NCBI GenBank assembly: GCA_905178155.1
Contig: CAJINV010000002.1
Location: forward strand, 9,988,650 to 10,052,649
DNA length: 64,000 bases
Origin: Amoebophrya sp. A120
Taxonomy: Eukaryota > Protista > Dinoflagellata
Direction of reading: 5' to 3'
The notes under the pieces were generated by a model that searched no databases, was not told the origin of the DNA, and saw only the letters and a list, made by a program, of their open reading frames with translations. The translations under genes were made by a program, and so were the position numbers. Each line of letters opens with the position of its first letter. Position 1 is the first letter of the stretch. Shown one piece after another: positions 6,501 through 64,000 of the stretch.

Positions 6501-9500
6501 TCCTGCTGCAGAATCTCCATCTGGACGAAGCAGCCCGGGAGCTCTTCCTCGTAGCTCTTTTGCATCAGGTCCGAGTTTGCGTTCAGAGAAACTGTTTCGA
6601 TGCTCAGGTTGAGCAACTTCCGCGGCGTCACGGTGATATTCAACGCTCGTTTCATCCTCTTTTCGTTCAAAGTTGCATTGGTCTTCGAGAACTGCTCCAA
6701 CCCAAACCCCAACTTTGACTCCAACGCGTAAGGGGGCTGCTTCGCCTCCTCCGGGTTCGTCAGCGTCAGGTTTTTTGACGTTGATGAACCCAAGCCAAGA
6801 ACGCTGCTGCTTGCACTAACATTCGATGTTGAAATGAGCTGGTCCAGCTCTTGCACACTCATCCTCGCCTCGCCTAAAAGCAAGGGCTCGTTTGTCTTCT
6901 CGTCGCGGTAGTAATCGTCGAAAACTTGAAACAGGATTTCTTCCAGCTCTTCCTTTTCTGCGGGCTTCGGAAACAGCAGTTCTTGCTCCCACTTGATCAG
7001 ATCGTTCGCCCGGTCCACCATTCTCGCGTTCGCGGCACTCGGACGGAAACTGTTGGTGGTCGTATTGGAACGGGCAACACTGCTTTGGCTTCGACTGCTG
7101 TACGCGAGCAAGTTCTTTACCGAAGGTATGACGTTGGTCTGAAACGACTCGAACATCTCTACATCCGTGCGCCCAAAGCTCTTCAGGCTCTCCTTCGATC
7201 TCGACCGCCTCTGCTTCCCTACGGCAGCCGCGTGCTTGTCCGCGGACTTGAAGGACTCGGCCGTCTTTTCCGCAAATTTCACGTGCAGCTCCTCAGGCTC
7301 TTCCTCCTTCAGCTTCTTCAAAATCGTCACCCGCACAAAGGGGTGCAGGTCCATGTCCGGCGTCATCGGTTTCAGGAAGTTGCTAGCGTGGTTGATCTGG
7401 ATGGACAGCCCGACATTCTGGACGCTGGTGGAAGTTGTAGAGCTTTGTTCCTGGTGCACTTGCTCAATTGTTGTTCCAGTCGCACTGCTGTCAACAGCGG
7501 GAACAGCAGCTTCCACAGGACCAGACACGACTCCCTCCTCCGCTTCTGTTGCGCTAATTTCCGGGATGACTTCCTCGCTTCTCAAGGCCCGCTCCATCTT
7601 CTCCATCTGTAGCTGCGCGGAGACGAGCCGCTCCAATCTTGTCGACACCCGACACAGCTGCTTCGTGTCCTCCCGCAACTGCCGCTCTTGCAGCCTTGTC
7701 GCAGAAGTAGAAACACCAGAATGACCCAACGACTTTTCCTCCTCCACCGCTGCGTCTGTCGCCAAACCGTTTCCGAAGATCGACCGTGCGCCCTCACCGC
7801 GCGGCGAAAGGTGGTTGGTCTGCAGGGCCCAGTGCTTTTCCAGGAACGACCGCTGGGCGTGCACCACGTGCGCCACCCACTTCTGCGCGCCCCCGAGCTT
7901 CACCTTCTCCACGAACAGCCGCTGCTTGTGCTCGTCCCACGCGTAGCGCTTCTGCGCCACCGAAGCGCCGCCGGCCTCGTCCACGACCTGCGCAGACAGG
8001 TCCCCGGTGAGCAGGAAGGGTTTGTTCCGCAAAACCGACACCACCGTGCTGGTGACCACGTCCGTGACCACGGGCGCCGGGTCCGTGTCAATGTGGTTCA
8101 ACAGTCCCTTCAACCGGGCCTCCGAGCACACGTGGCCGTAGTGGTGGTAGCTGTGGTGCGAGATCGGGGGGAGCCGGTAGTCCTTGCACAGCACGATGTT
8201 GGTATCGTCCTCTTTTGGGTCCTATCAAATGCAAAAATGTCTGGGTCTGGAAGGTTGGAACTTGTGATGCTAACTTTGAACTCTAAAAAAATCTGCATTG
8301 CATGACCAGCAAGAGGAGTCTAGTTTGTGCTACGCGGGGAGGGCGTTTGTCATGCGGAGTAGGCATCAGGAAGCCTGCTAAAAATCTGTGATGCTAGGTC
8401 GTGCATTACAGACATCCTGGGTCAAGTCTCAGAATCTTCCAGACCCAGACATTTTTACATCTGATAGGTCCTCCGGGGTCCACAGCTTGTACCTCGCGAC
8501 CGCAATCGGATCGTTCCAGTCGATGTCGATCTCGAAATTCCGGTACATCGTGGAGGAAAACAGACTGTTCGTGTTCTCCAGGGACGACACGTGCGTGGGC
8601 GGGTACTTGTACTTCGCCTCCTTGTCCTCGCGCGTGTAGAAGATCGACCCCTGGTCATCGGAGGAGGAGGAAGAGGAGGAATTCGTTCCCCCGAGACTGG
8701 TCCCTTGTCCTCTTTTTCTCTTTTCTTTCAGAAGTTGCTTCTGCTTTAATCGCTCCTTCCTCGGGACCAATCGTGAAATTTTCCAGGCGATGCTCTCCTG
8801 CACTGGCGTGTCCTCCACTTTCGCTAGGTCGCAGTAGTGCACGATGGAATTGTAGTCCTTGGCCACCTGGAAGTCCAGCCCCCGGATCCAGATGGCCTTG
8901 TGCCGCTCCTGGAACCGGATCGGCTGCGTGCGACTGGCGTTGATCAGTGGGTGCAAGAGCAGTGGGGAGTGGACCTTGGGGTTCTTCGGGATGAATTCGT
9001 TCAAAATGTTCGCGGTTTTATCTCCGAACGCCTCGGCAATCCGCTTGTCCTCGGCGGACATCTTTTTCTTGCGCTTCAGTTGGTTTTCGTACCGCTTCTT
9101 CTCGATCTTCTCCTCGTACTCGTGCTTAAAGAGGAACTTCATGCGGTCCTTGAACCGCCTGACATTCCCCTCCGAGTTTTTCTGCCAGGGGTACACCCCA
9201 CGGGGTCCGATGATGGCGTTGGTCTCCATACGGCCGCCACCGGACACGGAGTGCGCCTTGCGCCGCAGCCGCTTCTCCCGCTGCACGTAATGCGCGATGC
9301 GCTCGCGCGAAAAGGGCTTCTTACCGGTAGCGGAAATGATCGTGATTTTCGGCGCCGCGGAATTCTTGCCGGGCGTAGCAGTTGCTCGTACACCACCAAC
9401 GGGCACCGAGGCCGTCAGCGGACTGACGCGATTCTGATTATTCCTCGCCAGCTGCTGCTGTGAAGGTTGTTGTTGATTACTAGACCCAGTAGTTCCACTG

Positions 9501-9796
9501 CTGCCCACGCCAGGTGGGCCGGCAGCTGGTCTGTCTACGTCTATTTCGATCACCTCCTTGCCCCCGTCCAGGTTCACAGTCGGGTTCGAATCAACCTCGG
9601 CGTGGCTGCCCTCCTTTTCGGCCGCCTCGGCCACGTTGTACTCCTTGACCAGCTCGGCGGTGCCGAGCGTCTCCTCGTCCAACGGTGGTAACTCGGCGGA
9701 CACGTCGGTGAGTGGCGGGGCGGCATTCGCCTTCTCCGCCGACGCGGCCTCTGCTGCTAGTCTGGCCCTCTCCTGCTCTGCTTGCATCAGCTTCAT
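518..9796 (-). CDS. Large multi-C2-domain protein (about 3000 aa); possibly the C-terminal part of a longer gene starting at 13894
   Basis: ORFs 8429..9802 and 518..8194 join in frame (LWTPED-PKEDDTNIVLCKDY) after removing element 8223-8466 plus one GGTCC. Several C2-like motifs, e.g. LQLFVERADEIYEPDFAALDKCNPWIKINVG and LTIEVKRAQNIYPENFIGTADPFVRVLFRDQVFETKIV. Confidence 0.8.
8223..8466. mobile_element. Family A TIR introner/MITE, 244 bp, TSD GGTCC
   Basis: TIR TATCAAATGCAAAAATGTCTGGGTCTGGAAG / CTTCCAGACCCAGACATTTTTACATCTGATA. GGTCC at 8218-8222 and 8467-8471. Confidence 0.95.
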
Positions 9797-9952
9797 GGCC
9801 AACTTGGAACCTGTGAGTGTTGAGAAAGAATTTTTTTCAGTTGTGACCTCTGGATGAATTTTGCTAGTTTTGTTTCATGCAACGGACGGCAATGCTCAGT
9901 CTGAAACGTTCGACAAAAAACACAAAGCTCAAATGCACAGTGTAAAATCACA

Positions 9953-12900
9953 TTATAAAGTACTTTTGTCTTTCAAATGCGGCGCCAGTGCCTTCTGCGC
10001 GATGACGGCCTCCATCTCCATTGTGTATTGCGCGTCGAGCTCGACTTCCGTGGCGATGACTCCCTTGTTCTTCAGCTTTTCCTTCTTTGATTTCGCGGAC
10101 TTGGTCTCCACGAGCGGCTTTAAATGCAGCGTACCGGCCTCATCCCGTAACGGGTCCCAGCCCATGGCGTGGAAGAAACTCCGCTTCTTGTAAAGATGCG
10201 ACCGGACCTTCTGCGTCACCTGATGCCTCTTCCGGTACGCGCGGATGATGCGGTGGGGCTGTCGCTCCATGATACGGTCCTCCTCATCCAGCGCTTTCCG
10301 CACGTAGTACTTCGTGACGAAGGGCGTCAGCATGTTCCGCTGCTTCGACATGTCGTCCGGCACGGAGAGCGTCCGCTCCATCTTGTTCACCCACCCGAAG
10401 CCCCTCTCAATCTCGTGCGCCGTCACCGCCTTCTTCACGTCTTTCAACACCTTCTTCCCCCGTTGCGACAGCGCGTAGTGCAGATGCCGGCGGTCCCCTT
10501 CCGTCTTGCTCCCGTCCTCGTCGTCCGCACGCATTCCGGAGATGCGGCCGTCGGACCGCTTCAGCAGATTGCTCATCAAAATCCCCGCTTTTCGGACGGA
10601 CAACACCTGGTTGGGGTGCGGCTCCAGCCCGATTTCCTGCTCGGCCAGCATCGCGGAGCTGCTCCGCCGGGTCAGCAGGCGCCGCCGGTCCAGTTTCGAG
10701 TCCTTCTTCGTCAGCAGGCGGCCCGCCTTCTTTTTCTTCTTCTCGATCTTCCCGCGGTCCTCATCCACCTCCCCACCGTCCTCCTCGCGCACCAACGGCT
10801 GGGGGTCGTAGCCCCGCCACTTATTGCCGTCGAAGAAGAAGTTTTTCAGAATCAGCAGCTTCGCCGCGAAGATCTCCTTCGTTTTCTCGAGCTCCGCCTC
10901 GCGCTTCAGCCGGATCGCCTCTTTGCGCTCGAATTCCGCGTACTCAATGTTCGCTTCCAGCACCTCGCGGTCCTTGATAAATTTCCGGACCGCCTCCTCC
11001 TTCGACAAACCGCCCTGTTCCGCGGCGCGCTCCTCGGTCGATCCGGCCTTCCGCTTCGCCAACATGATGTCCGGATTGAAGGGAATCAGCTTCGCATGTT
11101 TGAACACTGGTTGAAACGCCGATATGCCGCTGCTCTTGCCCTCGCCGTCCCGCGCGTCGCCGCCGAATAACAAGGCCTGCAGCTCCCCGGACCGGCAGGA
11201 CGAGTAGATCTGGTACGCGATTAGCACGCCGAGGAAGGCGCCGCCACCGAGCATGAAACTCGACGTGCCCCCCTCCTCCCCGGCGTCCGCTTTGCCGGTG
11301 ACGCGAAACTGCGGGTCGCTCGTCGCCCACTCGTAGGGGACGCCGCGCAGCTCGTACACCGCCACGACGTCCCCCTGGTCCGTCTTGTCCTTCAGCCGGA
11401 AGCCCTGGGACTTTTGGTATAGCAAGCAGTTCATGCTGGTCACCTGCCGCAACTCCGTCTCCACGCTGCCCGGCGCCACCGGCACGGTGGTGAACGACTG
11501 GTACTCGAAGCCCTCGGGCCGCTCGCGGAAGTAGCTGAGTCCGTGGTCGATCGCGGCTTTGCGGCAGTCCTGGTAGGACGACGCGTCCACGACGAGGATC
11601 TCCTTGTAGCGGTCCACCAACATATCGTCGTTCCGGAAAAACTTAGTGTCGTTGCAATTCGAAATGTCGAAGGTGATCGTCAAATCCTCCGGGTTGCACG
11701 TCATGAACAGGTCCCCGTCGAAGTCCGGGTGCACGTCCTGGCACTTCAGCGAGTCGTCGGAGATCGACTCGTGGGGCACCAAAAAGGGGCGCACCGTGGT
11801 CGCGTTGCGCAGAATCGGGTTCCCGTCCAGGTTGATCATCGACTGCTGTGGCGCCATATCAAATGTAAAAATGTCTGGGTCTGGAAGAATGCAACTTGTG
11901 ATGCTGCATTTGGATTCCAAAAAAATCTGTGTTGCATGAGTACCAAAGGGAATGCAATTTTTGCCACGCTGAGAAGGCATTTGTCATGCGGAAAAGGCAT
12001 CGCGAAGCTCTCAAAAAATATGTGATGCTAGGGCATGCATCACAGACATCAGGACTCATGCAAAAAGTGCATGGCAAGTGTCAGAATCTTCCAGGAGACC
12101 CAGACATTTTTACAGTTGATATGCCAGCTGGTCGCCGCGGACCAGGGTCCGGCACACCTCGGGCACCGGGTTCACCACCATTGGCGAACAGTAGTCGAAC
12201 CGCAACAGCGGGTCCACCGTGAAGCACCAAATGCTGTTACTGCCGCCCTTGTCCGCCTGCCCCTGGTTGCGTCCGTCCGGGTTGCGGCAGTAGTTCTGGT
12301 CCAAGGGCAAGTCCACCAGCAGCCCCCCGGGGTAAAACACGTCCGGGTTGTAGTTGGTGACGCCGAAATCGGACGGGGCGTTCGGCGACCGCGTGGTCAC
12401 GCCAAACGTTTCGGGCGCCTTCGTGGTCGACGCGTCGATGGCATTCTGTCGGTTGATCAACTCCTGCTGGACGTAGGGATTCTCCTCGTTGAACCCCCGG
12501 TCATCCAACAACGGCGTCGTCGCGTCCGCGGTCAGTGTGGAGAAGGGGTGTAGGTGCGGGATGATCTCCTCCCAGGTCTGACACCGGAGCCCGGTCGTGG
12601 TGGTGTACGCACACCCCACGTAGTTGTCGTACGTGAACTCCTCATTGCACTGCCGCGTGCTCCACAATTTGTTCAAAAACACGAACCCGTGCGTCTCGTT
12701 GTACTCCAGCAAGTTCGGCATGCGGTTGAACCGCAAATTGTGCCGCAGTGCGATGTTCACATCCACCAACGCGTGCATCGTGCGGTTGTTCAGATCTCGT
12801 AAAAACTTTTGCTCCTCCGCTGCGGACCCGAACGGGCTGGGCAAGTACAGCATTGCGCGGGTTCGGTTGTACTCGCAGGAGGAGATCTGCAGCCCGTACG

Positions 12901-13894
12901 TCTGGTTCGGCAACTGCAGTGCGTACTGCAGGGAATGGCGCATCTCGGTTACTAAGTCAATGTCCATGGGCAGAACCAGCCCGCCGTTCCCGCGCATGCC
13001 CGGGTAGTGCTCGTACCCGTTGCAGATCGGCCAGGTTTCGAAGTCCGCCGTCAAGACCTGGAAGTACCGCTGCGCCTGGGTCCGTTCGGGGCTGTACAGA
13101 ATGTCCAGATTCACGCCGGAGAACCACCAGGAGGTGAGACTGGCCGACAATCTCTTCGCCGGCCAGGAGATGTCGCTGGTCGAGGCCAGGAGCTGCAGGT
13201 TGACCTGCTGCGCGGCGGTCACGCAGCCCGCCGCCTGCATGGAGGGGGACAGAAGCTGTCCGTTGATGCAGGTCGCCTTCAGCGGCGGCGCGGGGAAGGG
13301 CACGTACCCCGCCTGTGTGTTGCACGTCAGGGTGCAGGACCCGCCCTCGGCGATGGAAAAGCCCTCCTGACAGGGCCGCGCGTAGTAGTACTTGCTGTCG
13401 TCCGGCGCGGCGATCTCGCAGTGCTTCACGTTGGTCCCGTCGGCATTGAAGGTCTTGCGGTAGCACTCCGTGTTGAACTGCCCGTTCGGGATCTCCGGTC
13501 TCGACGCCGGGTCGATGTAGTACGTCCATGGCGGCACGGGGAGTAACACCGAGTCGTCCAGTTTCGGCCCGTAGATTTCGCAATCCGAGTACAGCAGCCG
13601 CTGGTGCCCGAACCCGGAGCACCGCTCCTCCTGGATACACAAGCTGGCGCATTCGCTCTCGGACGCGACGGTCTTCTTCCGCCGCTCTAAATTTAGGTCG
13701 CTGTTGGTGCACCAGCCCTGGCCCAGCAGCTCGAACGCATTGTAATAGTTGATGTTGTCCACGCGCTTTCCACGAAATTTCGGGTCCCAGGCCGCAACCC
13801 TGAAAATAAGCGTGTCCGGGTGCAATACGAACAGGATGAGCAGAGGCACAATGCCAACACGATTGGTCGTGCGATTGCTGCGCGTTTGCCTCAT
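9953..13894 (-). CDS. Type I membrane protein: signal peptide, PAN/apple-like domain, kringle, TM helix, cytoplasmic tail
   Basis: ORFs 12110..13903 and 9953..11980 join (RGDQLA-PQQSM) after removing element 11857-12121 plus 5 bp. PAN-like ECASLCIQEERCSGF; kringle YVGCAYTTTTGLRCQTW...NYCRNPDG...WCFTVDPLLRFDYC; TM FMLGGGAFLGVLIAYQIY. Confidence 0.8.
11857..12121. mobile_element. Family A introner, 265 bp, TSD CGCCA/TGCCA
   Basis: Family A TIRs. Flanks 11852-11856 and 12122-12126 differ by one base. Confidence 0.93.
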
Positions 13895-15028
13895 GTTCGA
13901 CAAAAAAGTCTAGGTAGGTTGTTTGTAGTAAAAGTGAAAATTACAAAATAGTAGAAAAGATGACCAAAGGAAATGTACAGGTGAAAATAGGCAAAAACAG
14001 AAGAACCCTGAGATCCTCGTGTCCAATGAAATAAAGTACAGAAGAAACGAAGACGAGCGATATAATTACGAAAAAAAAAGAAATTACGAAAGGGTATAAA
14101 AATACAAAAAAGAGGGCAGAACGAAAAAAAAAGACCTGTTTCGGGTGATGCGAATACGACATGGCGAGTTTGTTTTAATCCACGACGATGTTTTGACGAG
14201 TTTACGGCTGGAGAGTTTTCATTTCTGCACGAAAATTTAAAGTCTGCTGGACGTTGACGATTGTTCTATTTTGTACGATTTTTGCGGCAAATGACTGACG
14301 TGCTTTGACCACACGAAATTCTGACGACTGCAGACGCTGCATACAGCACGATGTCGTTGGTCCTTAGTTACTTTACGTCTTGCACGATACCAAGGGAAGT
14401 TATCTGGCCGTGCAAACTTGATAGATAACTACAACGCAAATTATAACTGCTGCTGCCGAAGCAAGAAATTACTATCACTGGTTCACACTGCGACTGCCAA
14501 TCACATACAAATCCGCTCACACGCACACCCGTCTTTCGCTTCTCTTACCTCGGGCAATGTTAATTTCGTCCAAGTCCAAGTGATGTTGACGGCTTCGGAA
14601 TTACTACAAGTTACTGTTTTCTCAGGAAAGTTGTTTTGTTTTGATTTGCAGACCAGCAACGACAATTTGAAACAAAACTTTTTGTGCGTAAAACCAAAAT
14701 TCTGCAGACACGGCATTTTCTAAACGTTGACTGTATTCTAGGATGCGGAAAAAGAGTGGAAAATTCGTTTCAAATATCTACAGCGCACCTATAGACGTGT
14801 AAACGTACAAAACGAGAATTGGGAAAAGCAAAATCAGAGCATAAGCATACCAATCGACACACACCTTGCCAAAAAAGAAGATACAAGTATCTCACCGCGG
14901 TACAGCTCTAAAAGAAAAAAATTACGTGAGTGGTCGACCACAGAAACTTCAATTTGCTACGTAATTCTTCTCACGTTGGCGCGGATCATGAACGTCGCAG
15001 CGTTTTCTGATAAGGCCCGCAACACTAT

Positions 15029-17492
15029 CTAAATCGACCACAGTTCCGACGCGTGCGCGTGCGGATTGAACGCATAATTAATCGGCCTCGCACCTCCCCC
15101 GCGAGTCCCTCCACACACACCCGTGCCGGAATTATTGCTTACATCCCGCCCTGCGCTCTTCCGATTTCCGCGCGCCGTGAGAATTTTGCAGGCGCCGTTC
15201 CGAAGCGATTCGTCCACCGCGTGCTCCTCCTCCCGGTACACCCACTCCAGGTCCGCCTGCGCCATGGGAATGGCCGCCACCAGGCCTTCGTTGCGGCACA
15301 AAGGGCAGGGGTAGGGGTTGCACAGCGCGCGCACACCCGAAAAATTCTCCCGTCCAAGGAAAAACCGGAGCCGAGACCGGATGTCTTTTTCCAAACAGGA
15401 GATGTGGAACGAGTGCTGACAATGCGGCAACGTGAGGATGTCGTTGGATTTCGTTCTTTCAGTGCTCCCCCTGCTGTCGCAGAGACAGCGGGGCCGGTTG
15501 TAGTTTTCGTTTTCACGATTGATGCCTTGTGCTTCTAGTTCTCCTTCTTCCTCCTCTGCCATGTTCGAGGACGAATCTACTGCATGGGAAAGCACGATCG
15601 CGTCCGGATTCTCGGCATCAACCTTCCAGAGCACCAAACATTCGCTGGTGCAATCGTAGCCGTCGTCCTCCTCGTTTTCCATTACAGAAGTATCACTGCC
15701 CGTACGTGGTCTTGAAGACTGGGTAAAGGGAAAGGATCGCACACTTGCGGGGGAATTCGCCGATGACGCCGGCGACGATGGCGCGGTGGTGCTACTGCTC
15801 GAGGAAGACGTGGACCGAGAGAAAAAGCTTGTACCTGCTGACAAAGCTGCACTACTAGTAGTACTTCTACTTCCCGGAGTCGTAGCTCCGCCGAAAGACA
15901 TGAGCTTTCGCTTCACCGCAGAGGAGCAGCCTGGGAGCGTTTCATAGCAATCGGCGACGTCGTCCTTGTTTTTTCCGTTGTACTTGAACACCAGCGGCTG
16001 CGAAAAGGCGGAGTCGGGGAATCCTCGAGGCAAAGGCTCGCGAAGCAACCTGACTGGAAGTTTCTGCTCGATGTGGTCCTTCGATTTTCCACTTTTCATT
16101 TTCTTGCCTCTTTTCCAAAGTCCGTTCCTGGGCCACATACAGGCAGGTGGAGGAGCGACGTGGTCATCATCATCGATTGGGGATGCTCTACCAGTACTTC
16201 CGCTTGCACCAGCGTCGGCTGATGGTGACCGTGAGTCAGACTCTCTTACAGTTTCTCTTTCGTCGGGAATAGAGACGACTTCCGCCAGGAATTGCTCGAA
16301 CGACGATTCAGTAGCGCGATGAACTGTTACAGCACTGTCAGAAGGAGCGCCTGGAACATTCTCATCAGCAGTTCCCACGATACCCTCCTGTGACGTGCCA
16401 GAATTTAAAGCTGTCCTCGCATTTCCACGTTCCTCCTGCCGCTCTCGATTCCTTCCTCCCGACGAAGCAGCAGCTCTCCCACCAGTCCGATCCGCCGATA
16501 GACACAACTGCAACAGAAAGCGGCCGACGCTTGCAATGTCAGAGTCGGAGCACGACTTTTTGGTCGCGGAGGAGCCTTTCTTCGCAGGGACAACCTTTCC
16601 ATTCTGCGTCAACGGCTCCAGGCAGATGGCGCATTCCAGCGGTTCGTCAGGCTCTGGCTTCCTTGCCTTTCCAGTAGGTGTGGTTGCACTCGCACCTTGT
16701 CTGGATGCGGATTTTTCATTCTGTGTTGTGCGAAAAAATAGCCCGAGGGAAGATGAAGAGGAATCTGAAAGCTCCGCGTCTTGCCCCTCGCGGTCTGCTG
16801 GTACCGAAACGCCTCCGGGAAATTGGTCGAGATCAACTCGTCCATATCCTGTGCAAAAGTATCGTACTCGTATAAATGCAAGTCTTGCATTACAAATCCT
16901 TCTCGTAAGGCAAATCCGCATTACAAATTTTATTTCTCATGCTGAGGGAATTTGTAATGCATTTATACGAGTACGATACTTTTGCAGTTCATAGTCCACC
17001 TGTTTCAACAATTTCTCCGCGCAGTGTTCGGGAGCTAGATGGGGGTATCAAATGTAAAAATGTCTGGGTCTGGAAAGTTGGAACTTGTGATGCTAACTTT
17101 GAACTCTAAAAAAATCTGTATTGCATGACCAGCAAGAGGAGCCACGTTTGTGCTACACGAGGAGGGCATTTGTCATGTGGAAATGGCATCAGGAAGCTTT
17201 CCAAAAATCTGTGATACTGGGTCATGCGTTACAAGCATCATGGGTCATGCCAGACAAGCATGACAAGCCTTCCACTCTTCCAGACCCAGACACTTTTACA
17301 TTTGATAGGGGGAGTGATTGTGCGAGTCGAGGAAAGACGCAGAGACAAGGCAAGAGCGCTACTTCTCAGCAGCAACTCATGCTGTGAAGACAAAAGAAGC
17401 ACGATAATCTGGCATGCGGACGCGATGACATTTTTGTAGCCTTCGCAGTACCGAATTGGAAAACCTGCTGCCCTCGGCCGCCGCTGCGCCAT
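15029..17492 (-). CDS. RING-H2-type zinc-finger protein (putative E3 ligase), 3 exons; start uncertain
   Basis: Frame is continuous (ITPP-SSSRTLRGEIVETGG-RVDLDQF) after removing elements 17046-17307 and 16845-16993, each with one TSD copy. Motifs CAICLEPL and LPHCQHSFHISC...CPLCR. Confidence 0.7.
16845..16993. mobile_element. Family B introner, 149 bp, TSD GTCCA
   Basis: TIR TATCCTGTGCAAAAGTATCGTACTCGTATAAATGCA versus right-end reverse complement TATGAACTGCAAAAGTATCGTACTCGTATAAATGCA. GTCCA at 16840-16844 and 16994-16998. Confidence 0.93.
17046..17307. mobile_element. Family A introner, 262 bp, TSD GGGGG
   Basis: Family A TIRs. GGGGG at 17041-17045 and 17308-17312. Confidence 0.93.
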
Positions 17493-18073
17493 AATTTCCC
17501 AAAAAGTTATAATTTTCGCACCGTACTTACTGTACTCCCGATTCCGCTCGAGATCGTGTCTAAAAGTGGCAAGGTCATATCGTGTGCCGTAATGTATCAA
17601 ACACGGTAAACAACTTCCGAAATCAAAACAACGACGAACGTAGCACCGCCACAACAGCACAGACGAACAAGGCCGCCCAAACAAGAACTTCGTGAATCTA
17701 TGCAGACCGTGTCACCTGGTCGTAAATTGAATTTGAGTTAGTGTGACGCTAGCAATCAATACTGTGAACACTTGAATAAAACATCGCAAAGAGCCCCCCA
17801 CGCTATGCCGTGTCCAGTCGCATTATAATGCGCTTCTTTTACTATATTTGGAAGCAATTTACTACAATACAGGGAGACATTCATGGCTGCTCATCCTACG
17901 ATTTGGACTTGTTACGCAAAATACAAGAACATCCGAGGTTGCGGTACAATCACAATACTAGGTATCTTATTTTTCTGTGAAACAATTTTCAGCTCCGTCT
18001 ATGCAACAAGCTCCACGGTACTGGAGCTTTTCAGTATTTTCGGGATAATAGAGATTTGTTGTTTTGGATACAT

Positions 18074-51786: not shown

Positions 51787-51931
51787 TATCCTGTGCAAAA
51801 GTATCGCGCTCGTATTGCAGTCATGCATTACAAATCTTTCTCTTAAGATAAATCAGCATTACATATTTTATCTCTCATGCTGAGGAAATTTGTAATGCAT
51901 TTATACGAGTACGACACTTTTGCAGTTCATA
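51787..51931. mobile_element. Family B element, 145 bp, TSD GGCCG
   Basis: Closely similar to 16845-16993. GGCCG at 51782-51786 and 51932-51936. One minus frame stays open across the repaired site (CEGWTG-HYSVDVHEL). Confidence 0.92.
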
Positions 51932-52515: not shown

Positions 52516-55500
52516 CTACTGGTCGTCTTGTCGCCTGCCGGCCATCGTAGGCCGCTTCGTGTTGAGCCGGAAAAACATCGAAGAATTTTTTCTTCTGTGC
52601 GCTAAACCCTCGCTCTTCTCACGCCGCGGGCAGGGGAGCCGCGGGTGGATTTTCGAGCATCGCACTCGCTGGGTCGCGCTTCGCGTACATGACTTCCAGA
52701 TCCGCCCACAGCGTTTTTCTTCTTTCCTTCTTCCCCATCTCCTCCTCCAGCGATGCGCGATTGTTGGCGCTACACTCGTCAAACAGCGGGGGATCCGCTT
52801 CCATCAGCAGCTTCAGCACGTTGAATGTGAGCCCGTGGACCTTTTATTGATAATTTCCTCTATATCTCATATTCAACCAACAACAAATCGTGGCTGTCTG
52901 TTCTTACGGAGACCAGCACCTACAAGGAATCGCATCCACGCGCAGCCACCTGTATGGAATGGAATCGCTGCGCGATTGGGAATGCAAAGAGAAAAACACC
53001 GTCTAGGAAAATACGACATGACCCTCGCCAGGACATGGAAACAAGCGCGAAATAAGATACCGCCGAGTTCCAGTGGTGCTTCGAGGTGTTATACAGCGCA
53101 CCGAGCACGATGGGAAAGAGTTCTTTTCTGTTGGAATTGATCAGCTTCACTATGTAGTCGTTGTTCCACAAAAACAAACTTCGCTCCGCCACCTGGAAAT
53201 GCGGGCAGTCGATACCTGTTGTTTTTCTTTCCGCTGATCGTACATGCAAATAAACCTATGTGCTGTCGTCGAAGCTAGTGCCAACACCATCTCACAAGGG
53301 GCTGCTCCTCCACTGAGAGTAGAACTACGCAACTGATTGTCAAGAACAGGTCGTTGTGTACAACGATTATGCAGGTAAAATCGAAAATGTGTACATAATG
53401 CAACGCGCTTGAAGAGCTGCTTTTGGATGGCGACGAACTCTGGTGGCTGCACGAGTTCCATATCAAATGCAAAAGTGTCTGGGTCTGGAAACTTGTAATG
53501 CTGCATTGGGAATAGAAGTGAATGCTTTGTAATGCACAGACAAGCATGCGAAATATCTGCGCTGCCTTGTGTTGCGTTTTCCGCACAACAAACTGCGTTT
53601 TTGCATGACAGGGAAAAGGTTCTTTTCTTGAACACGCATCACAAGCTTTTCAGCCATGCCGGACAAGCATGACAAACCTTCAGTTCTTCCAGACCCAGAC
53701 ATTTTTGCATTTGATATTCCAAGATCTCCTCCAATTCGTTCAGATAGAGTATCTGCTTGCTCGTCAGGCTCACTGGCCAGAACTTCAGCATGGAAATCAC
53801 AATGTCAATCGCCAACTTGGGATCCTTCTCCACAAACTGCGTCATACCTGTGTTGAGTCCAAATAGCATGAGCGAAGCAGTGTAGGATGCAGCGAGGAGC
53901 GCCAAGTACGGAAGAAGGAAAACACCAATCAAGCATCTACTTCTAGTTATTCTTGTTAGTTTCGCGAAACAAAAAAACGTCAACAACTGCAACCAGTATC
54001 AGTGTCTTACAGTAACTCAATTGCTGGTGGAAGCTCGCCAGGGACTTGACACTCTATGCACCCAAAAAATTTGCATCCTTTAATATCAGTTTGCCTATAC
54101 TGTATTTGCAGCATATTGCAACAAGCAGCTTTCAAAAAAAACTTCTCCAAACGGAGGACCACATGACATCGATTACAAGCGCTCTCCACTTCATCTTTTG
54201 GTGCCTAACCGTTCTATCGCGTGTTTTAATGCAAGCTGATAAGGATGTTGTTCCCGGTAGTTTTGGTCAGTTTCGTACTTTGTGCAGTGGTATCAGTGCG
54301 CGCACGAGAAAGTCCTTGTGCTCGTCCTTCAGTGGCAAGGCAAACCCGTTGATGATTGACCCGAGAATTTCCAGTAGCTCTCCGACGCCGTTGTGCATTT
54401 CTGACTCGTATATCACCTTGAAAAAGACGTGCTGTATCGCCCTTCGGATAAAGCTGCGCAGCGCCATAAACTTCCCGTATCTGAGTATGTATGTGAAAAG
54501 GAGAATGAAAATTATTTCATTTCTTTGTGGTCTGTACCTGCGCCTGGCAGATTTCTTTTTTTTTCCTTTTTCTACCACAACGAAAAGAACTTGACAAAAG
54601 GAAAAAAAACATACACTCTGTGCAGGATAGTTTTCAGGTAGTCCCGCTCTCGGCAGTCCTCGGAGTCAAACAGCTCCAGCAGTTTCAGCACGAAGTTTGC
54701 GTCGATAAATCGTTTTGCTATTTTGGGGTCGACGTCGTTGGAAACCACAAATCGGAGAAAAAACTCGTAAACCTGATTGCGCGTTATTCATGTTCTCGTA
54801 GATCACCTATCTAATCAGCACTTTGTGATGCAAAGAGATCGCCGTGATGAGATAGAAGTACAGGTAGTAGCAACTCCCAACCGGGGCTGGCGGTAGTAAA
54901 TATCATTCCATGTCATGACTTCAAAACCTTCCTGTAGTTTTCCCATTCATTGATTCGTCAAGTAGAATCCATGACAATTTTGTGTAGTAAAGATTGTACG
55001 ATTTGCAGGTGTGGCCATGCGGAATCAAGCTGCGGCTCGTCGTCCTCAGGGTCGTAGATTCGCATAATTGTTCTGTTGTTTCCTATCGACTGCAAAAACT
55101 TTGCCCCCAAATGTGTACTATTCGGATTCCTACAATTGGCTCAATCTTTGTCCGAGGGGAGACCGAAGACTCGCAACCTCTGCGATTATGCTAATTTACA
55201 AACAACATGCAACTCACATGCCAAAAGGTGGTACATTTGATTTTATTCGTCGTTCTTGTGTTCCTGCTATTCCATTCCAAAAGGATGGCCATCGCGATGC
55301 AATAGAGGGACAGCGACAAGGTTGCAGTCGATACTCGCCGGAAGTGATCTGAAAATGTTGGCGGCCACCATGTTGACGACGTCCTCCATTATGCTCTCCG
55401 TGAAGCAATTTCGGGTGTTGTTTATGTATTCCACGATTTCGAGAAGTGCTTGTCGCTTTGCTTCTTTTTCCGTTGGATTTGCCTCACTGTGGAAGTCGAA

Positions 55501-55872: not shown

Positions 55873-57623
55873 CCGTCGCTTGATATCCCACAGAAAAAAA
55901 CTGGCAGGTCATATTTGTAATGCAAAAATAACTAGAAAAAAAAATTTGTATTGCATATCCGAAACAGCATGCTATGAGGCCGCCCATGACAGATCTTTCT
56001 GTGTATTTATTTTTGCATTACAAATATGCCGGGCCAGCTTTTTTCTGTGGGATACTTGACTGTCTGTATCAACTTCATCTTCCCGGGGTCTTGCTTTCGA
56101 ACCTTCCCGATGGAATGAACAAAAGTTCTTTGCGTGTGGTACTTAGGGTCGTGATGAAGTGATGCCACCCAACAACTTGCCGCTCGTATAAGGAGAGAAA
56201 AAGTTACGCAGTCTAAAAACGGATTCTTCTTATGGTTCCCCGTGCTGGTCCTCTACTTCCCGATCGATCTACTCTTACTGGATAGTAGTAGACAATTTTC
56301 CACCTCCGAAGTGCTGCTTCTTTTCGAGAAGTCCTGCTGGTAACTTCTCACTTCTACTGCTTTCCACAAACGAGGAGAGAAGGAGCGGCTTCGTCTCGAC
56401 CGCACATGGGGACGGACAAGCCATCGTATGCGTCGGAGGTCTCAGCAACAGTTGACCGGCATCCTGTTTCGAACCACGTCCTCTCCTGCACGGGCGCCGC
56501 CATTTCAGAGGTTACCAAGACATCAAGCCGATATCGATCAGTGCGAGGGCAGCAGCTTCTAATAGCGATTTTTTGGTGTGCGCAACGTTAAAAAAATTGG
56601 GGGGACGGAATTTTTACAGCACTTTAGATAGTAGCAGTTCTACCTTGCGAACAATCGTTTTTACAATGCGCGGAGGAGAATTGAGAACCCTATTCCTCGT
56701 CGCAGAAACTATATCACTAGCGGTCAACACAACTTCAAGTGAAAATCAAGATTCCCAAATAATTCTTGTGTGCCGTGTAGTAAATTTTCTCCTCGGAAAT
56801 CACAGCTCTGCAAGACGACAGGGTAGTACTCAACACACATGAAATTCAAAATCCTAATTTGTACAGCAACTAATTAAGTTGAAGACCCTGTAGCGCGATG
56901 GGCAACTGTAGAGAAAAATGTCTTGCCATGCTTCGGACTTGTAGTTATAGATGATATTCTATCTGCACTTCTTAGAGCCGCTGTGATGTGGTCGCAGTCA
57001 CAACATTAGTGAAGACTGCCGATCAGTGGTGTCTTCTCAGTTGTGATGAAAAAACACTCATTCCTGGTTTGTTATGTCTACTATTTCACATACTTACTAC
57101 TCCTTCCTCGTCCATCGTTTTCGTGCGTGCATTGATGTTGTGAAAGTGTTCAAGTCTACCAGAATTCGATTTCGAATTCGTTGCACTCTCGTGCATGATT
57201 GGCATCAAAACTACATGCTGCGCTACCACTAGAGGTGCGGCAACAGTTTCTTTCTGGGTTCTCTTCAAAAAAAAGGATCGAATCATTTTTCTACTACACT
57301 CAAGAATTGCACATGCATGCAGAAACAGTGCGGGCGCACTTGTCCTGAACAACCGTGTTGACTCATCTCGCACAATAGGAACACAGCACATCTCAGATCT
57401 AGTACCACTTGCGTGCAAACAAGCGAGGTGCTCTACTCAAATGAATCCTTGCTTTCATACAGCTTGTTCAAATCATTTCATAACAGTCGCTAGAATAAGA
57501 GTTCCGATGATTGTCTGTGCCTCCTGTCGCACTGCTTGCGCGTGAAGAACGGAAATAACGCACCCGATCGCTTCTGACGGTCGATAGCGCGCCGTCGGCA
57601 ACTTGGTCACCTGCCTGTACCAA

Positions 57624-60600
57624 TCAGCTATTGTCAATGGTGTTGATCATGTGCTGCGTGATGATACTGGTTCCCTTCTTTGGGTCTTTCGACACCCGCC
57701 AGTAGCGTTCGCACACCTGTTTCCGCGACAGCATCTGCACGAAGGTTTCGTCGTGCGTGATGATCATGAGCTGGAACCCACTGTGGTCCCGGCGGGTTTC
57801 GATCAAAGAGCCCAGCGCTTCCGCCAGCGCCTCGATGTTTTTCTCGTCCAGATTGGTCGTGGGCTCGTCCAGCGCCAAAATCCCGCACTGACACCCGAAG
57901 GAATCCGCCAGTGCGAGTCGCGTGATCAGACTGGCGAGCACCTTCTGTCCCGCGGAGCACCGGCCCCGCATGTCCAGCTCCGTACCGTTGGCCAGCATCA
58001 TCACGAGGCGGTAGTTGTAGGACCGACTGCCCGCCCCGCCCCGCTTCACCTGCGCAGCTTGTACAGGATTACTATTCGCGACGCCTTCGTTCAGCTGCAA
58101 GGGGTCACTATTCAGGTTGTTTGCCGCAGCTCCCGTCGCGTCCTCGGCGTCGGAGCGGATCTGCACGTACTCGATATCCTTTCCCTTGTAGATTTCCTGC
58201 CACAGGCTCCGCATGGTGAAGTTGATTTCCATCATCTTTTCCTGGTGAAACTTCATCAGAGCCACGTCCAGGCTGTTGAAGTACTTTTGGCAGTCCTGGG
58301 CCGCGGTTTTCACGCTCTGCTCCTCGATGATGGCTTTCCGGTACCGCTCGTCAATGTCCTGGTACAGGCTGGAATCCAAATTGTATCAAAATGAAAAATC
58401 CCCCCTCCCCATATCGCAACGAAGTTTCTGATGCTGGATTTCCGTACACAAATCGCAGCTGTCTTGCAGTACAGGACTGCAGGCGTATGCCAAGCCTCAG
58501 TCGAGAGGTTTTGACGTAGGTGCCTAGCATGGCAAACGTGTATGCTCTAAGCCCAGCAGCATCACAAACGGCCTGCAAAATGCGGGGCGCTCTTTGGACA
58601 TGCCTTCTTGCAAGACAGACAGGATTTGAGGTCACAAATGCGCATCACAAATTTTCAGACGGATGCGTTTTCAATATGGGGAGGGGGGATTTTTCCTTAC
58701 GATAAATTCCTCTGTGCGTCCAGCATCTCCACACCGATCTGGTGCAAGCTTCCCTGGATCTTCCCCCGGTCATTGATCGCCTGCTCGGTTTTCACCTGGA
58801 GTTGCTGCGCCAGCTGGTGCTCGGTCTCTGTCAACTGTTGCATCGCCGTCTTCATACTGCTGGGGGGCGCGTTTTGAAGATTTCCTATTTGTTCACTGGC
58901 AGATGATGAAGACGATGCCTGGTGGTTTTGTTGCCGTAGCTGCTGGAAAATCTGCGCCACGGGCTGCGGCAGGTAGCTGTCACCGAGATTGGCCAAATTG
59001 ATATCATTGTGACCACCACCGGCGACGTTGCTCGAGGACGATGCGGCCGCGGCGTTGCCGCTCCTCACGGGCGTCGGGGAGAAATCTGAGCCGCTAGACG
59101 AGTTATTCGGGTGGAACAAAGCACTATTTTGCTGTTGTTCTTCCATCTTAACCTCCACCTGGTCTGGCGACGACGGAGTCACGGCCGTCCCGGTCGCCGG
59201 AGGATAATTATTTCTGCCGCTATTTCCACTTTCTTGTTCGCGGAGGACATTCCGGCTCCACAGCTCGACCTCCTCGTAGCACTTTCGCAGCTCTCGCCAG
59301 TCGTCGGCGACTTTCAGCTCGTTGCTGTACTTCTCACAATCCGCTTGGGTGCGGTAGAGTTGGAGATTCTTCGCAAGCCAAAACACTTTGGTCTGCAGGT
59401 CGGCCAGGCTGCTCACCACCTCGTCCTTTTGCTGCTGTTTTTCTTTGTAACTCTTTTCCTTTTCGGAGACCGCGAGCTCGGCGCGCTTCAACTCTTCCCG
59501 CACACTCTCCGCGTTCCGGATCTTCTGTTCCAGCTTCTCAATGTCGGTGTTCAGCTCCTGCAGCTTCTGCATCTTGTTCGCCAACTCCGTTTGCTGCCGC
59601 TCCAGAAACTGCACAATCTGCTTCTGCAAGTTCTCGAAGTTCCGGCACTCCAGCTCCACCTGTTTCAGCTGCTCCTGGACCTGCGCGGAAAAGCTGTCCA
59701 GCTGCTGCAGATTGGCGCTCAACGCGACCAACTCCTGCTCCACGTTGGCAACTTGCTTCTGCAGCTCCTCTTTCCGCGTCATCTTCTCCTGCAGCAGCTG
59801 AAACCTGGACTGCAATTCTGTGAGCCGCTGCCGCCGCCGCTGCTCCTCTTCGTTCAGCTGGTTCAGCTGCTGCTGCTTCTGGTCCAGCGTCCGCTCCAGC
59901 TGGTTCGACTGCTCGAACAGGGCGGAGAGCTCCTCCCGCTCTCGCGTCAGCTCGTTCTTTCCGGCCGTTTGCGACGTTCCCGCACTTGTTTGCCCGAGTA
60001 GCGCGGCGGGGTTGCTGATCGACATCTCCTTGTCGCGCAGGTTCCGCTCCGCGTCCCGCAGCTCTTCCTCCATGCGCAGCAGTTGCTGAAAATGCACAAT
60101 AACCGGCTTGAACGAGTTTTGTTCCTCCACCAGCTTCGCGAATTCCGCCTGCAAATTCGTGATGTCGAACTGCTTCTCCTGCACGAGTTTTTGCTTCGCC
60201 GTGTTGTTCTCCTGCTCGGCGCCAAGTTTCTGCTGGCACTCCTGCAGTTCCGCGAACTTCGGTTTCAAATTTTCCATCGCCGCGAGCTCCGCTTCCAACT
60301 CCTTCACTTTGGCTCCTGATTCCGCTCCGCACTTCTTTTCGATCATCTGTCGCAGCTTCGCTACCTGCGCTACCAGGGCTTGCCTTTCCGCCTCGTTGGC
60401 AAAGGGTCGCTTGCACATCTCGCGTATCCTGCGTAACAACGCCCTCACGGGGGAATAAAAATCCAGATGGGGCTTCCGCGCGAAGCAGTCTTTATTAAGC
60501 GAGGGACTTCACCACTTAAGCGAAGCACTTAAGCGAAGCAGTTAAGCGAAGCACTTCAGCGAAGCACTTAAGCGAAGCACTTCAGCGAAGCAGTTAAGCG

Positions 60601-63600
60601 AAGCACTTCAGCGAAGCACTTGAGCGAAGCACTTCAGCGAAGCACTTGAGCGAAGCACTTAGGCGAAGCACTTAGGCGAAGCACTTAGGCGAAGCACTTA
60701 GGCGAAGCACTTAAGCGAAGCACTTAAGCGAAGCACTTAGGCGAAGCGCTGCACTTAAAGCACTATTTAAACGGGGCACTACTTAAGCGGGTCACTACTT
60801 GAGCGGGGCACTACTTAAGCGGGGCACTACTTAAGCGAGGCACCAGTTAAGCGAGGCGCTGCCCCTAAGCGAGGCACTACCTGTGCGAGGCACTAATTAC
60901 GCGAGGCACTACTAATGCGACGCACTACTTATGCGAGGCACTACCCAATCCAGGCACTACTTAAGCTAGGCACTACTTAAGCCAGGCACTACTTAAGCGC
61001 AGCACTACTTAAGCGAGGCACTACTTAAGCGAGGCAGTACTCAATCCAGGCACTATTTAAGCCAGGCACTACTTAAGCGAGGCAGTACTTAAGCGAGGCA
61101 CTACTCAATACAGGCACTACTTAAGCCAGGCACTACTTAAGCCAGGCACTACTTAAGCCAGGCCCTACTTGCGCGAGGCACTACTTAAGCCAGGCACTAC
61201 TTAAGCCAGGCAATACTTGAGCGAGGCACTACTTAAGAAGCGAGGCACTACTTAAGCGAAGCACTACCTGCGCGACGCACTGCATAGGCGAAGCACTACT
61301 TACTTCAGCGAGGCACTACCTTCTCCACCTGAGGTGCGGTACTATTTCAGCACTACCTAAAGCGACGCACGGCTTAGACGAGGGGCTACTTGAGCTCGGA
61401 GCCACTCCGAAACAGTTAAGCGAGGCCCTTCTGCGAAGTACTACTTGAGCAGCGAAAAACTACTTAAGCAAAACGCGTGAGCGAAGCACTAAAGCCTCGC
61501 GAGCAAAATTTGCATGACGAATCAATATGGCATCGAGAGAACGTTGCTCAACGGGATATCGCAGCAATCCTTTTTCAGGGATCTCTCTTCCATCGCGTTG
61601 TACAACTTAGCACCATTCTCGATCAACGCGAAGTTGCTCCTTTGGCCTTCGAGGCGTTCTTTTACGTCGGCCAGCTTCTGCTCAAAATCGGCCAGATCGG
61701 TGAACGCGCTGAGCTCTTGCCTCAGCCTGGCTGCGCCGCTTCCCAGTCTCTCGACCTCCTTGTCGCTGTAGGTTTTTTCCGAGATCCCCTTGTGGTGCTC
61801 CTTTTGCTTCGCGTCCGTTTGGCCTCTCAAAGTCGCGAGCATTTGGTTCCCGTGCTGCTCGATTTTCTGCGCTTGCTGCAGGCACTGCTCCGCGATTGCG
61901 GGAAAGCAGGACGAAGCAGCTCCGGCTGGTAATCCGAACGACGTGCCGGAACTACTGCTGAAGTTGTTCGTGGAGAAATTATTGCTGGATGTCGAGAAGC
62001 CTCCCACATGGCTATTGGTCACCCCTCCGGCAGCCGATCCAGTTGTAGACAGCAGTCCCTCGATGCTGCTTCTCGCCTCGTGTCCGAACCAACTTCCGGG
62101 CGCGAGGCCCGCAATGACGGTCTTTACCTGCACCTTCTTCTCGTCCAGCTCTTTCAGTTTCTCCTGCTTCGCGTTTTGCAGGAACTCCACCTCCATCAAC
62201 AGCTTTGATTGCTCCTCCAAAACCTGGATCCGGTCCTGTTTCTCCTGAAACGAAAATTGCAGGTCGTGCTTCTCCTTCCTCAATTTCGCGACTTCCCTCT
62301 CCAGCTCGTTTTTCCGCGTTTGCGTTTCCGCCCCCGCGGTCTGGGTCTGCTGCTGCACCTTCTGCAATTCGCTCTGCACCTGCTCGTACTCGCGCTGCAC
62401 TTTTTGGTAATTCTGCTGTTCCTGAAACAGCTGCGCCTTCCGCTGCTGCAGCTCGCGCTCCCGCGCGCGTTGCGACTCGCACTGGATCCGCGCATCCTGC
62501 GCTTTCTTGCCGATCCCCTGCACGTTCTGTCTTTTTTGCTCCAGTTCCGCCGCCTGCCCCTTCTGCAGCTGCTGCAACTTCGCGCCGTGCTTCAGGCACA
62601 GCTGCTGCAGCGCGCGCATCGTCTCCCCGTCGTGGTGCTGTAGTTGCACGAGGGTTTGCTGGTTCTTGTTCTGCACCCCCGCGGAGGAGGAGGAGGAGGA
62701 GGCTCCTGCAGATGGTGTAGAAGTAACAGTGTTGTACACCTGTCGCTGCAGAACTTGTTTCATCTTTTGGTCCAACTCCCCCTCCAAAACGGCTTTGAGC
62801 GAGCAACTTTGCACCAAGCTAGCACCGACCTGCGACATCAGTTGCGACGCTTGCGGCTGGCTCCCGAGCATGGCGGCCAAATTCTGTTCGCTGTCCTTCC
62901 CAACAGTCGTCAAAATCTCTCCGCGCCACAGCTCCTCGCGCCGCTCGTTTCGGGTTTTCAGCAAATCGCCCGCGGCGGCGACCTCGCCGATCTCCGAGCG
63001 GAGCTGCTTCACCGTTTGCTGAACCTGCTGAAACTCCTGGTTTGCCAAGTGTTCCTCCTGGTCGAGCTTTTCCTTTTTCTTCCCCAGCTCGGGGATGGTC
63101 GTGTCTGTCAAGTTATCAAATGTAAAAATGTCTGGGTCTGGAAGATTGCCAGGTTTGTCATGCACATTTTGCATGACTCCTGATGTCTGTGATGCCTGTC
63201 CTAGCATCACAGATTTTGTGAGGGCTTCCTGATGCCTATACCGCATGACAAATGCTCTCTCCGTGTAGCAAAACTTGGACTCTCTTTGCTGCTCATGCAA
63301 TACAGATTTTTTTTTAGAATCCAAAATCTGCATGACAAGTTGGATTCTTCCAGACCCAGACATTTTTACAGTTGATACAAGTCTTTGCTTTCTTCCTCCA
63401 GGTCCGTGACGATCTCCCGCGTCGTATCCTGAGCAAAAACGTCCCCACCCCAGAGTCAAGATGGGGAATCCGCTAGGCAAAACCGCCACCTCTGGTTGTT
63501 TCGCATGACAAATTTATCCTCGTAGTGTAATCCTCTTTAGCTAGTTCCGAAGCATCACAGATCTAGCATATCATGCTGATTCTAGCATTACAAATTCCAA

Positions 63601-64000
63601 AACAGGATAGGAAAATGGTTCTTATGGGGCTCCGCATGAGAAACTTTTTTAGCATGCAGATCTGCATGACAACTCTGGTGTGGGGACATTTTTACTCAGG
63701 ATACGTCGTGCGCCCCTCCGGCTCCACGAAGATCTGCTCGCACTTATTACAGTGAAAAATGCTCTCACCCCCAAAGTTGCAAGCATTTGTGATGCGAAGT
63801 TTCCAAATGAAAACTTTTTGTCATGCATGAAAGGACTATGAATCTTTCTGATGTAGAGTCTAGGCGTGTTTCGCATCGCTTGCATGACAAGCACCGCTCT
63901 TGCTGGGATCTTTTGCAATACAAATTATTTTTACTATTCACGATCGGAAATCTGTGATGCTGATACATGCAAGAGGGCGAATGTTTCATTTGGAAAAGTT
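57624..64000 (-). CDS. RAD50: DNA repair protein RAD50 (5' part outside window), interrupted by five TIR elements
   Basis: [46 protein letters not shown], IITHD; long coiled coils; reconstructed zinc hook CEMCKRPF. Confidence 0.95.
58384..58704. mobile_element. Family C-related introner, 321 bp, TSD AATTG/AATTC
   Basis: TIR TATCAAAATGAAAAATCCCCCCTCCCCATAT / ATATGGGGAGGGGGGATTTTTCCTTACGATA. Removing 326 nt gives AQRN-LDSSLYQDIDERYRK. Confidence 0.92.
60425..61558. mobile_element. 1134-bp introner (family D-like ends) filled with minisatellite, TSD TCGCG/TCGCA
   Basis: TATCCTGCGTAACAACG versus right-end reverse complement TATCCCGTTGAGCAACG. Flanks at 60420-60424 and 61559-61563. Confidence 0.85.
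60514..61320. repeat. Two-phase minisatellite: 13/14-bp GCGAAGCACTTAA, then 16-bp GCGAGGCACTACTTAA
   Basis: Visible tandem arrays; the period changes near 60750-60775. Confidence 0.95.
63114..63377. mobile_element. Family A introner, reverse orientation, 264 bp, TSD CAAGT
   Basis: CAAGT at 63109-63113 and 63378-63382. Removal gives EEESKDL-TDTTIPEL. Confidence 0.95.
63425..63703. mobile_element. Family D introner, 279 bp, TSD CGTCG
   Basis: TIR TATCCTGAGCAAAAACGTCCCCACCCCAGAGT / ACTCTGGTGTGGGGACATTTTTACTCAGGATA. CGTCG at 63420-63424 and 63704-63708. Confidence 0.95.
63745..64000. mobile_element. Family C element, opposite orientation to the 43267 copy, cut by the window end
   Basis: Starts TATTACAGTGAAAAATGC. 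Interior matches the reverse complement of 43267-43582. Predicted TSD GCACT. Confidence 0.9.

Follow-up and report, generated by a model that had tools for sequence, protein, structure and literature searches.

Introner elements of the dinoflagellate Amoebophrya sp. A120 were described by Farhat et al. in 2021 (PMC7789003) as having inverted repeats that start with TAT and end in As, direct repeats of 3–5 nt, a hairpin model and removal seen by RNA-seq. The parts of that text available to us give 29,850 repeated introns in A120, liken the elements to miniature inverted-repeat transposable elements (MITEs) for which no cognate transposase was found in A120, and leave the removal mechanism open; a family with terminal inverted repeats (TIRs) and an integrase-like open reading frame (ORF) in A120 is described in the sections seen of PMC12130899. 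Here we analyse a 64,000-nt window of this genome (contig CAJINV010000002.1, forward-strand positions 9,988,650 to 10,052,649; coordinates below are those of the window), whose elements are these published introners and hence already known, and we describe the orientation of the insertions, the cut register and the signals at the element ends.

Terminal AC occurs as an alternative to AG in introns of Giardia and Spironucleus. The fused branch–3′ introns of these organisms (PMC6679479, text in part) resemble the A120 elements, as read below, in a VTATG donor with free +1, a fixed short branch-to-3′ distance and intra-intron pairing, but they keep CTRAC and a terminal AG and are not transposons. 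Introners of Polarella glacialis and Aureococcus (10.1101/2020.10.14.339549, text in part) are, like those here, elements with TIRs and target-site duplications (TSDs) that form introns either way round; they recruit GT, GC or GA plus AG from the element or the TSD. The nonconventional introns of Euglena, as far as described in the accessible text of PMC12501133, also have paired ends without GT/AG, slidable repeats, a 3′ overhang longer than the 5′ one and a proposed MITE origin. Their motif, however, is CDG/CH′G with overhangs of 3 and 5–6 nt and a purine starting the next exon, whereas A120 has UAU/AUA, 1 and 4 nt, and no purine bias that we could see; excised circles have been shown in Euglena. 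Non-canonical introns of Fritillaria borealis (PMC13326754 and PMC11282704, both in part) are likewise transposon-derived and mostly non-GT/AG, with the spliceosome retained, but have fixed favoured ends (AG-AC, AG-AT) and a duplicated U2AF, whereas A120 leaves the first base and the final four unconstrained.

Removal of introners in either orientation

The window elements have inverted ends of ~30 nt that start with TAT and end with ATA, together with a 5-nt TSD, and such ends were present at all nine starts named in a preliminary description of this stretch. In an end profile of 246 elements, positions 1–3 read T, A and T (partly fixed by the finder) and A occupies positions 11–13 at 0.91–0.95. 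They share with A120 introners the terminal inverted repeat starting TAT, the A run after ~7 nt, the 3–5-nt direct repeat (5 nt here), the repeated families and removal in RNA, and with MITEs and other TIR DNA transposons the TIR, the constant TSD and the short non-coding interior. Two annotated Amoebophrya sp. A120 proteins, P0001 and P0005, are 100% identical to two window ORFs.

Contigs X1 and X2 (one sample) and X4 (same study) are presumably RNA; all three skip the GT-AG intron 9811–9963. RNA contigs skip the element plus 5 nt at all seven elements in 1700–21600 and also at 51787, making eight copies, which include the opposite-orientation copy 18074 (three runs; non-coding) and two copies with decayed TSDs (Table 1). 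The transcript at 18074 probably runs on the minus strand, judging from the flanking GT-AG candidates 19462–19810 and 21579–26127, the latter 1 nt off the loose-end position. Indirect evidence of removal comes from the coding opposite-orientation copy 32366, where P0001 and two orthologs read through ungapped, and from 63114, 63425 and 63745, where the annotated RAD50 reads through. Among the RNA joints listed, a selection that left out 156 others, none falls at 32366, 36758, 38811, 39176, 43267 or 50453, which speaks neither for nor against removal at these copies. The window exons are not represented in the raw RNA runs X8 and X9; X8 reads that align to 32541–32629 represent an 88-nt family A end at 90–95% identity with other flanks, possibly from a related strain. 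Removal in DNA, which the preliminary description had allowed for, found no support: the DNA contigs X5 and X6, which come from one study and drop rare variants, run into filled sites at flank-level depth and contain none of the four RNA-supported joints displayed (18074, 20461, 20967 and 51787).

By interior alignment, 8223, 11857, 17046, 20461 and 20967 share one orientation, and 32366, 63114 and 18074 have the opposite one; cross-group family A alignments score 77–264 on the opposite strand compared to 19–51 on the same strand (shuffle null 19±3). The two family C copies, 43267 and 63745, are also opposite to each other (score 283 on the opposite strand, 43 on the same). Copies 53461 and 39176 are too divergent for direct orientation against window copies and were oriented through metagenome links (161 members, 3441 links, none inconsistent). 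For the nine copies named in the preliminary description, these orientations, and the placement of the host genes on the minus strand, are as first described: in a scan of minus-strand ORFs only, Pfam matches at E<0.001 were obtained for 7 of 22 ORF pieces (C2, Kringle, GCP twice, RAD50 and B56 twice), with a weaker match for a RING piece, and removal of element plus 5 nt opens a minus-strand frame in a large C2/Kringle gene, the RING gene, a gene at 30.7–32.8 kb, GCP, PP2A-B56 and RAD50.

The sense and antisense insertions were counted in one metagenome assembly, whose elements are 84–97% identical to the window copies and whose Rpb1 matched one protein at 73%. A scan with the exact TIR pattern listed 146 loci (at least 146 match), while the same scan of a viral collection gave none. 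A general element finder detected 231 unique elements among the listed loci; on 60 of the 146 loci (161,775 nt) it returned 139 elements in real sequence and 0 in shuffles. Under a strict coding test, 83 of the 231 pass after removal of element plus 5 nt, only 0–3 pass after removal at +0, +1, +3, +4, +6 or +7, and 82 and 79 pass at +2 and +8, as expected for the same frame. This filter overlooks true coding copies such as 17046 and 53461; the 83 copies and 8 from the window form a set of 91 coding copies. Core family A is split 14:21 by orientation (p=0.31) and wider family A 23:32 (n=55, p=0.28, 95% interval 0.29–0.56), so that neither orientation is strongly depleted in coding sequence (a strong depletion would have contradicted the preliminary description); a moderate bias is still compatible with 23:32. 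Both orientations occur in all six families with at least two coding copies, and at L013, L060, L066 and L073 they occur on one called strand. The strand calls are supported by Pfam, which matched 9 of 39 ORFs on the called strand and none of the 39 on the opposite strand. Insertion as introns in both directions is thus common to A120 and the Aureococcus and Polarella introners. Taken together, the RNA skips and the 23:32 split indicate that the elements are almost certainly removed whatever their orientation, and that removal is also independent of the interior, with the symmetric ends carrying the signal.

Two metagenome loci deserve separate mention. At L063:1269–1530 a family A copy interrupts RNA polymerase II Rpb1, and removal at +5 aligns ungapped to P0052; both strands of L001:600–2390 hold ABC-transporter-like pieces, which may point to a misjoin at an element.

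Splice signals, cut register and end variants

Of the 91 coding copies, 52 are frameshifting, and all frames are closed by stops in 34 of the remaining 39; the TSD letters look unconstrained. At 17046 neither GT nor AG is possible at any register because the TSD is CCCCC. Across the set, GT, GC or GA with AG can be read at some register in only 13 of 91 copies compared to 10.3±3.0 by chance, so that the recruitment seen in Aureococcus and Polarella is not apparent here. GT/AG, an intact TSD and a particular interior are all dispensable for the element-plus-5 skip. Paired ends without GT/AG, as in euglenids, are predicted in 10 of 11 folded copies and are absent from the predicted fold of 31524, but the euglenid pattern N3CDG..CH′GN5–6 followed by a purine was not found; the first exon base after the intron is G in 33, A in 23, C in 21 and T in 14 of the coding copies.

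Elements whose two TSD copies are not identical reveal k, the count of letters retained from the upstream one. The RNA joints give k≤4 at 11857, k of 3–4 at 18074 and k of 4–5 at 20967 (a joint marked "between: not known"), and annotated proteins give k≥1 at 58384, 60425 and 31524. As k=4 is the one value shared by all of these, the main cut probably falls 1 nt ahead of the first TAT and 4 nt past the final ATA, although it may slide. The skip stays at +5 without a repeat, with the terminal pair broken (20967) and with the stem extended by the flank; its constancy in all three situations suggests that the length is measured from the motif.

At k=4 the intron begins N-UAU(C/G). Of the 13 donors of window GT-AG introns, as placed by frame or RNA pieces and leaving out the uncertain 55083–55334 intron, 12 read GTA and 10 read GTAY, and on this comparison the element start may be the GUAY donor of this genome with position +1 set free. 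Read at k=4, all 91 coding copies have U at +2 and A at +3, with a finder that would also have accepted G at +3 (a relaxed finder was run too). Predominant non-canonical ends in Table S4 of PMC7789003 (seen in part) are NT-NN in 9 of 9 A120 types and TT-NN in 9 of 9 A25 types. The U2-type pair of a G+1 donor and an AG acceptor is not a feature of the elements, nor is a U2-pairing branch consensus; the invariant A at −7 is a candidate only.

The relaxed finder gave 13 end variants among the listed loci and 0 in shuffles. Two of these were dropped because their end is shared with another element (L057:2243 and L070:1625) and two window copies were added, so that n remains 13. All 10 changes at TIR positions 1–2 affect the element end that is 3′ in the transcript, and all three T>C changes at position 3 affect the end that is 5′ (Fisher p=0.0035, post hoc), whereas 5′ U+2, 5′ A+3 and 3′ A at −7 were never changed among these variants. 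Seven variants could have produced either a G-U or an A-C opposition, and all seven produce A-C in the transcript, the opposite of what pairing alone would favour; along the whole arms, G-U against A-C stands at 86:64 (p=0.09; 31:26 per element), with no clear G-U excess. Since the tolerated variants are polar, the two ends probably serve as separate 5′ and 3′ signals and not just as a symmetric hairpin. The earlier proposal that recognition depends on the symmetric TIR or hairpin therefore holds in that the symmetric ends carry the signal, but not for a purely symmetric hairpin. Its further argument, that insertion in both directions rules out polar spliceosomal signals, is invalid, because a TIR presents identical 5′ and 3′ text either way and spliceosomal introners in both orientations have been published (10.1101/2020.10.14.339549, text in part).

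Other features of the window

The elements are collected in Table 1. At 60425–61558 the RAD50 zinc-hook CXXC is interrupted, and the needed Cys is given only by the upstream TSD letter. The old element at 31524–31785 retains TATC..GATA ends and the length of family A, although pairing between its arms is gone; a candidate GT-AG intron inside it (31539–31646) was rejected. Within the 20967 copy lies an unrelated insertion of ~240–260 nt (21100–21338), and the whole copy is still skipped.

Table 1. Introner elements of the window, their setting and the evidence for their removal or orientation.
Position	Element	Setting	Evidence
8223–8466	Family A, orientation 1; perfect 5-nt TSD	Coding	X1 and X2 RNA contigs skip 8218–8466; stops in all three frames, +5 removal opens frame
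11857–12121	Family A, orientation 1; TSD copies differ at transcript position 5	Coding	X2 joins 11852 to 12123, downstream letter kept, so k≤4
16845–16993	Family B	Coding	Skip read from X4 contig piece coordinates (middle piece not displayed); frame
17046–17307	Family A, orientation 1; TSD CCCCC	Coding	X4 contig piece coordinates; frame
18074–18342	Family A, orientation 2; decayed TSD	Non-coding transcript, probably minus strand	X1, X2, X4 skip 18070–18343 (274 nt); 0 in X6 DNA; k=3 or 4
20461–20723	Family A, orientation 1	Likely 3′ untranslated region (UTR)	X1, X2, X4 skip 268 nt; 0 in X6 DNA
20967–21493	Family A, orientation 1; nested insertion, decayed TSD, last base changed	Likely 3′ UTR	X1, X2, X4 skip 532 nt ("between: not known"); k=4 or 5
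31524–31785	Old TAT..ATA element, decayed arms	Coding	+5 removal gives annotated P0001 exactly; ends unpaired in predicted fold
32366–32627	Family A, orientation 2	Coding	+5 removal opens frame; P0001 and orthologs P0002 and P0003 read NPYR ungapped
36758–37018	Other family; TSD gone	Coding	Frame opened only by +2, +5 or +8 removal
38811–39014	Other family; decayed TSD	GCP C-terminus	+5 removal extends frame to a stop ~50 codons on
39176–39451	Divergent family A relative, orientation 2; 3′ end variant ACA	GCP, coding	Orientation via metagenome copies
43267–43582	Family C	GCP, coding	Interior alignment; frame
50453–50849	Other family	Probably coding	
51787–51931	Family B	Likely 3′ UTR	X1 contig (depth 272) skips 51782–51931; 0 in X5 DNA
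53461–53716	Divergent family A relative, orientation 1	PP2A-B56, coding	Orientation via metagenome copies
55884–56054	Other family	Near B56 start	
58384–58704	Other family; TSD differs at position 1	RAD50, coding	P0005 residue matches upstream copy, so k≥1
60425–61558	1134-nt element with 13- and 16-nt tandem arrays	Splits RAD50 zinc hook	Removal at k≥1 gives CEMC as in P0005
63114–63377	Family A, orientation 2; frameshifting	RAD50, coding	Frame; annotated RAD50 reads through
63425–63703	Distant family A relative, orientation 1	RAD50, coding	Annotated RAD50 reads through; orientation via metagenome copies
63745–64000	Family C, opposite to 43267; runs off window end	RAD50, coding	P0005 continues across

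Several kilobases of non-coding sequence under RNA contigs (17850–27500) apparently form one long, multiply spliced 3′ UTR, which may belong to the 27509–30076 gene. It includes a likely 4.5-kb GT-AG intron (21579–26127) that contains a GC-rich (69%) region with inverted arms at 21612–21671 and 26046–26105; an X4 contig exits at 21577 and re-enters at 26128, bracketing this candidate. Further TAT..ATA candidates lie in non-coding sequence at 26621–26838 and 34688–34833, and short tandem arrays of 42 and 32 nt at 34311–34520 and 35031–35258. The gene at 46800–48110, which seems to resemble ribosomal protein eS7, has GT-AG introns only. This fits the scarcity of introner elements in ribosomal genes reported in the accessible text of PMC7789003.

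Mechanism of removal

The reading that we favour, and that we consider about evenly balanced between right and wrong, is that a loosened spliceosome reads a signal carried at both inverted ends and is the predicted catalyst. The donor would be read at +2 to +4 with +1 free, the branch point is predicted at the A that opens the terminal AUA, 7 nt upstream of the 3′ cut, the 3′ site would be set by distance, and the paired arms would bring the element ends together. An element could then sit either way round only as long as each of its ends is able to serve as donor, and a copy carrying one TGT or CAT end should be tolerated only where that end lies downstream. In favour of this reading, 5 of 91 coding copies show GT-AG at k=4 against a background of 1.9% (p=0.03), and 31524 retains TATC..GATA despite decayed arms. 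In the parts seen of PMC7789003, 83 of 89 spliceosomal proteins were found and U1 small nuclear RNA (snRNA) was not detected; the Giardia donor VTATGTT is combined with a fixed branch-to-3′ distance (PMC6679479, in part), and a modified spliceosome handles the non-canonical introns of Fritillaria (PMC13326754, in part).

A number of observations weigh against the loosened spliceosome or against the evidence for it. At k=4 there is no preference for G at +1 (32 of 91 against a 31% background, p=0.43), the preference for AG is weak (12 of 91, p=0.07), and first and last base pairs match background (p=0.76), although splicing depends on that pair according to PMC13326754 (in part). Between −45 and −8 the U2-type branch consensus YTRAY is absent from all 39 family A coding copies and present in 3 of the 52 others, the 3′ heptamers are variable, and the candidate branch A is predicted to be paired within the stem. 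The Table S4 ends may reflect aligner preference. The polarity of the end variants is post hoc and based on n=13, two candidates having been dropped and the strand being weakly called at L001, L015, L072 and L110; deviations along the whole arms are equal at the 5′ and 3′ ends (119 vs 123). All RNA evidence consists of assembled cDNA contigs from one study, and for opposite-orientation family A it comes from one copy, 18074, which is non-coding and whose strand is itself deduced. Finally, single TSD mismatches in coding copies are synonymous in 14 of 20, compared to an expected 38–45% if one copy were always free (p=0.004–0.02); this excess suggests that the register can slide.

The strongest competitor is a separate non-spliceosomal pathway, a possibility that we rate below the loosened spliceosome, in which a nuclease would bind the base of the TIR hairpin via UAU/AUA and cut 1 nt outside it on the 5′ side and 4 nt outside it on the 3′ side, with an RNA ligase then joining the exons; a route of this kind has been proposed for the nonconventional introns of Euglena. 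It would account for the lack of any GT/AG or terminal-pair constraint and for the long terminal stems predicted in both orientations, and the longer 3′ overhang resembles the Euglena code, whose introns are excised as circles, as cited in the parts seen of PMC11282704 and PMC12621601; the undetected U1 snRNA would also be in keeping with it. However, the register coincides with a GUAY donor, the end variants favour A-C over G-U with no clear G-U excess in whole arms (an asymmetric protein could still yield polarity), the skip does not respond to a broken terminal pair or a stem extended by the flank, and 31524 has lost its pairing. Self-splicing by the elements is extremely improbable. Although an A 7 nt before the 3′ end in a stem is reminiscent of group II domain VI, the interiors are unrelated across families, range over 145–1134 nt, can be reversed and tolerate insertion, and an Rfam search of the window gave no match.

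Two further explanations place the loss outside RNA splicing, and both are very unlikely. Excision from DNA in the expressing nucleus, by precise transposon excision or removal like that of internal eliminated sequences, would leave exactly the loss of the element and one TSD, and the A120 elements resemble MITEs. It is opposed by the filled sites and missing joints in X5 and X6, contigs of one study in which no empty sites were seen, by TSD-less copies that are still skipped by +5, and by end variants that follow the direction of transcription. Slightly less probable still, the skips could be falsitrons, jumps of reverse transcriptase over a hairpin between direct repeats, with the cell dealing with the elements otherwise: a hairpin with a short direct repeat is a known substrate (PMC8240250, in part), the RNA evidence here and in Farhat et al. 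2021 is all cDNA, and the synonymous excess fits a sliding joint. In the accessible text of PMC8240250, however, disruption of the repeat abolished the artefact, whereas 18074 and 20967, which lack an intact direct repeat, skip +5 at a 1-nt overlap despite 3–4-nt overlaps at other lengths. Moreover, since coding copies in genes such as RAD50 and Rpb1 shift the frame or carry stops, the cell must remove the elements, although jumping may still bias the register seen in cDNA.

Implications

The elements themselves are known; their orientation-free removal is confirmed here and apparently unreported, and the specific code, comprising the cut register and the donor likeness, appears to be new. In the text parts of PMC7789003, figures apart, we found no orientation count, cut register, donor-like reading or end-variant polarity, and the portions seen of PMC9860276, PMC12130899, PMC12787238 and PMC11453091 contained no orientation or register analysis for Amoebophrya. 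A wider literature search likewise found no such analysis of Amoebophrya introners; it covered few subscription journals, and supplements and figures that were not seen may bear on novelty.

The removal of ~30,000 non-canonical introner introns in A120 has been without explanation since 2021. The proposed code, with an N-UAY start, an A at −7 and a cut 4 nt past the repeat, and with interior, TSD and orientation free, gives direct tests. Either outcome would be surprising: a spliceosome able to work without either terminal G, or the presence in alveolates of a second splicing machine. If the pathway is non-spliceosomal, it would neutralise TIR insertions of both orientations across tens of thousands of sites, in convergence with Euglena. 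Orientation-free removal would explain how a transposon could spread at low cost through genes such as RAD50 and Rpb1.

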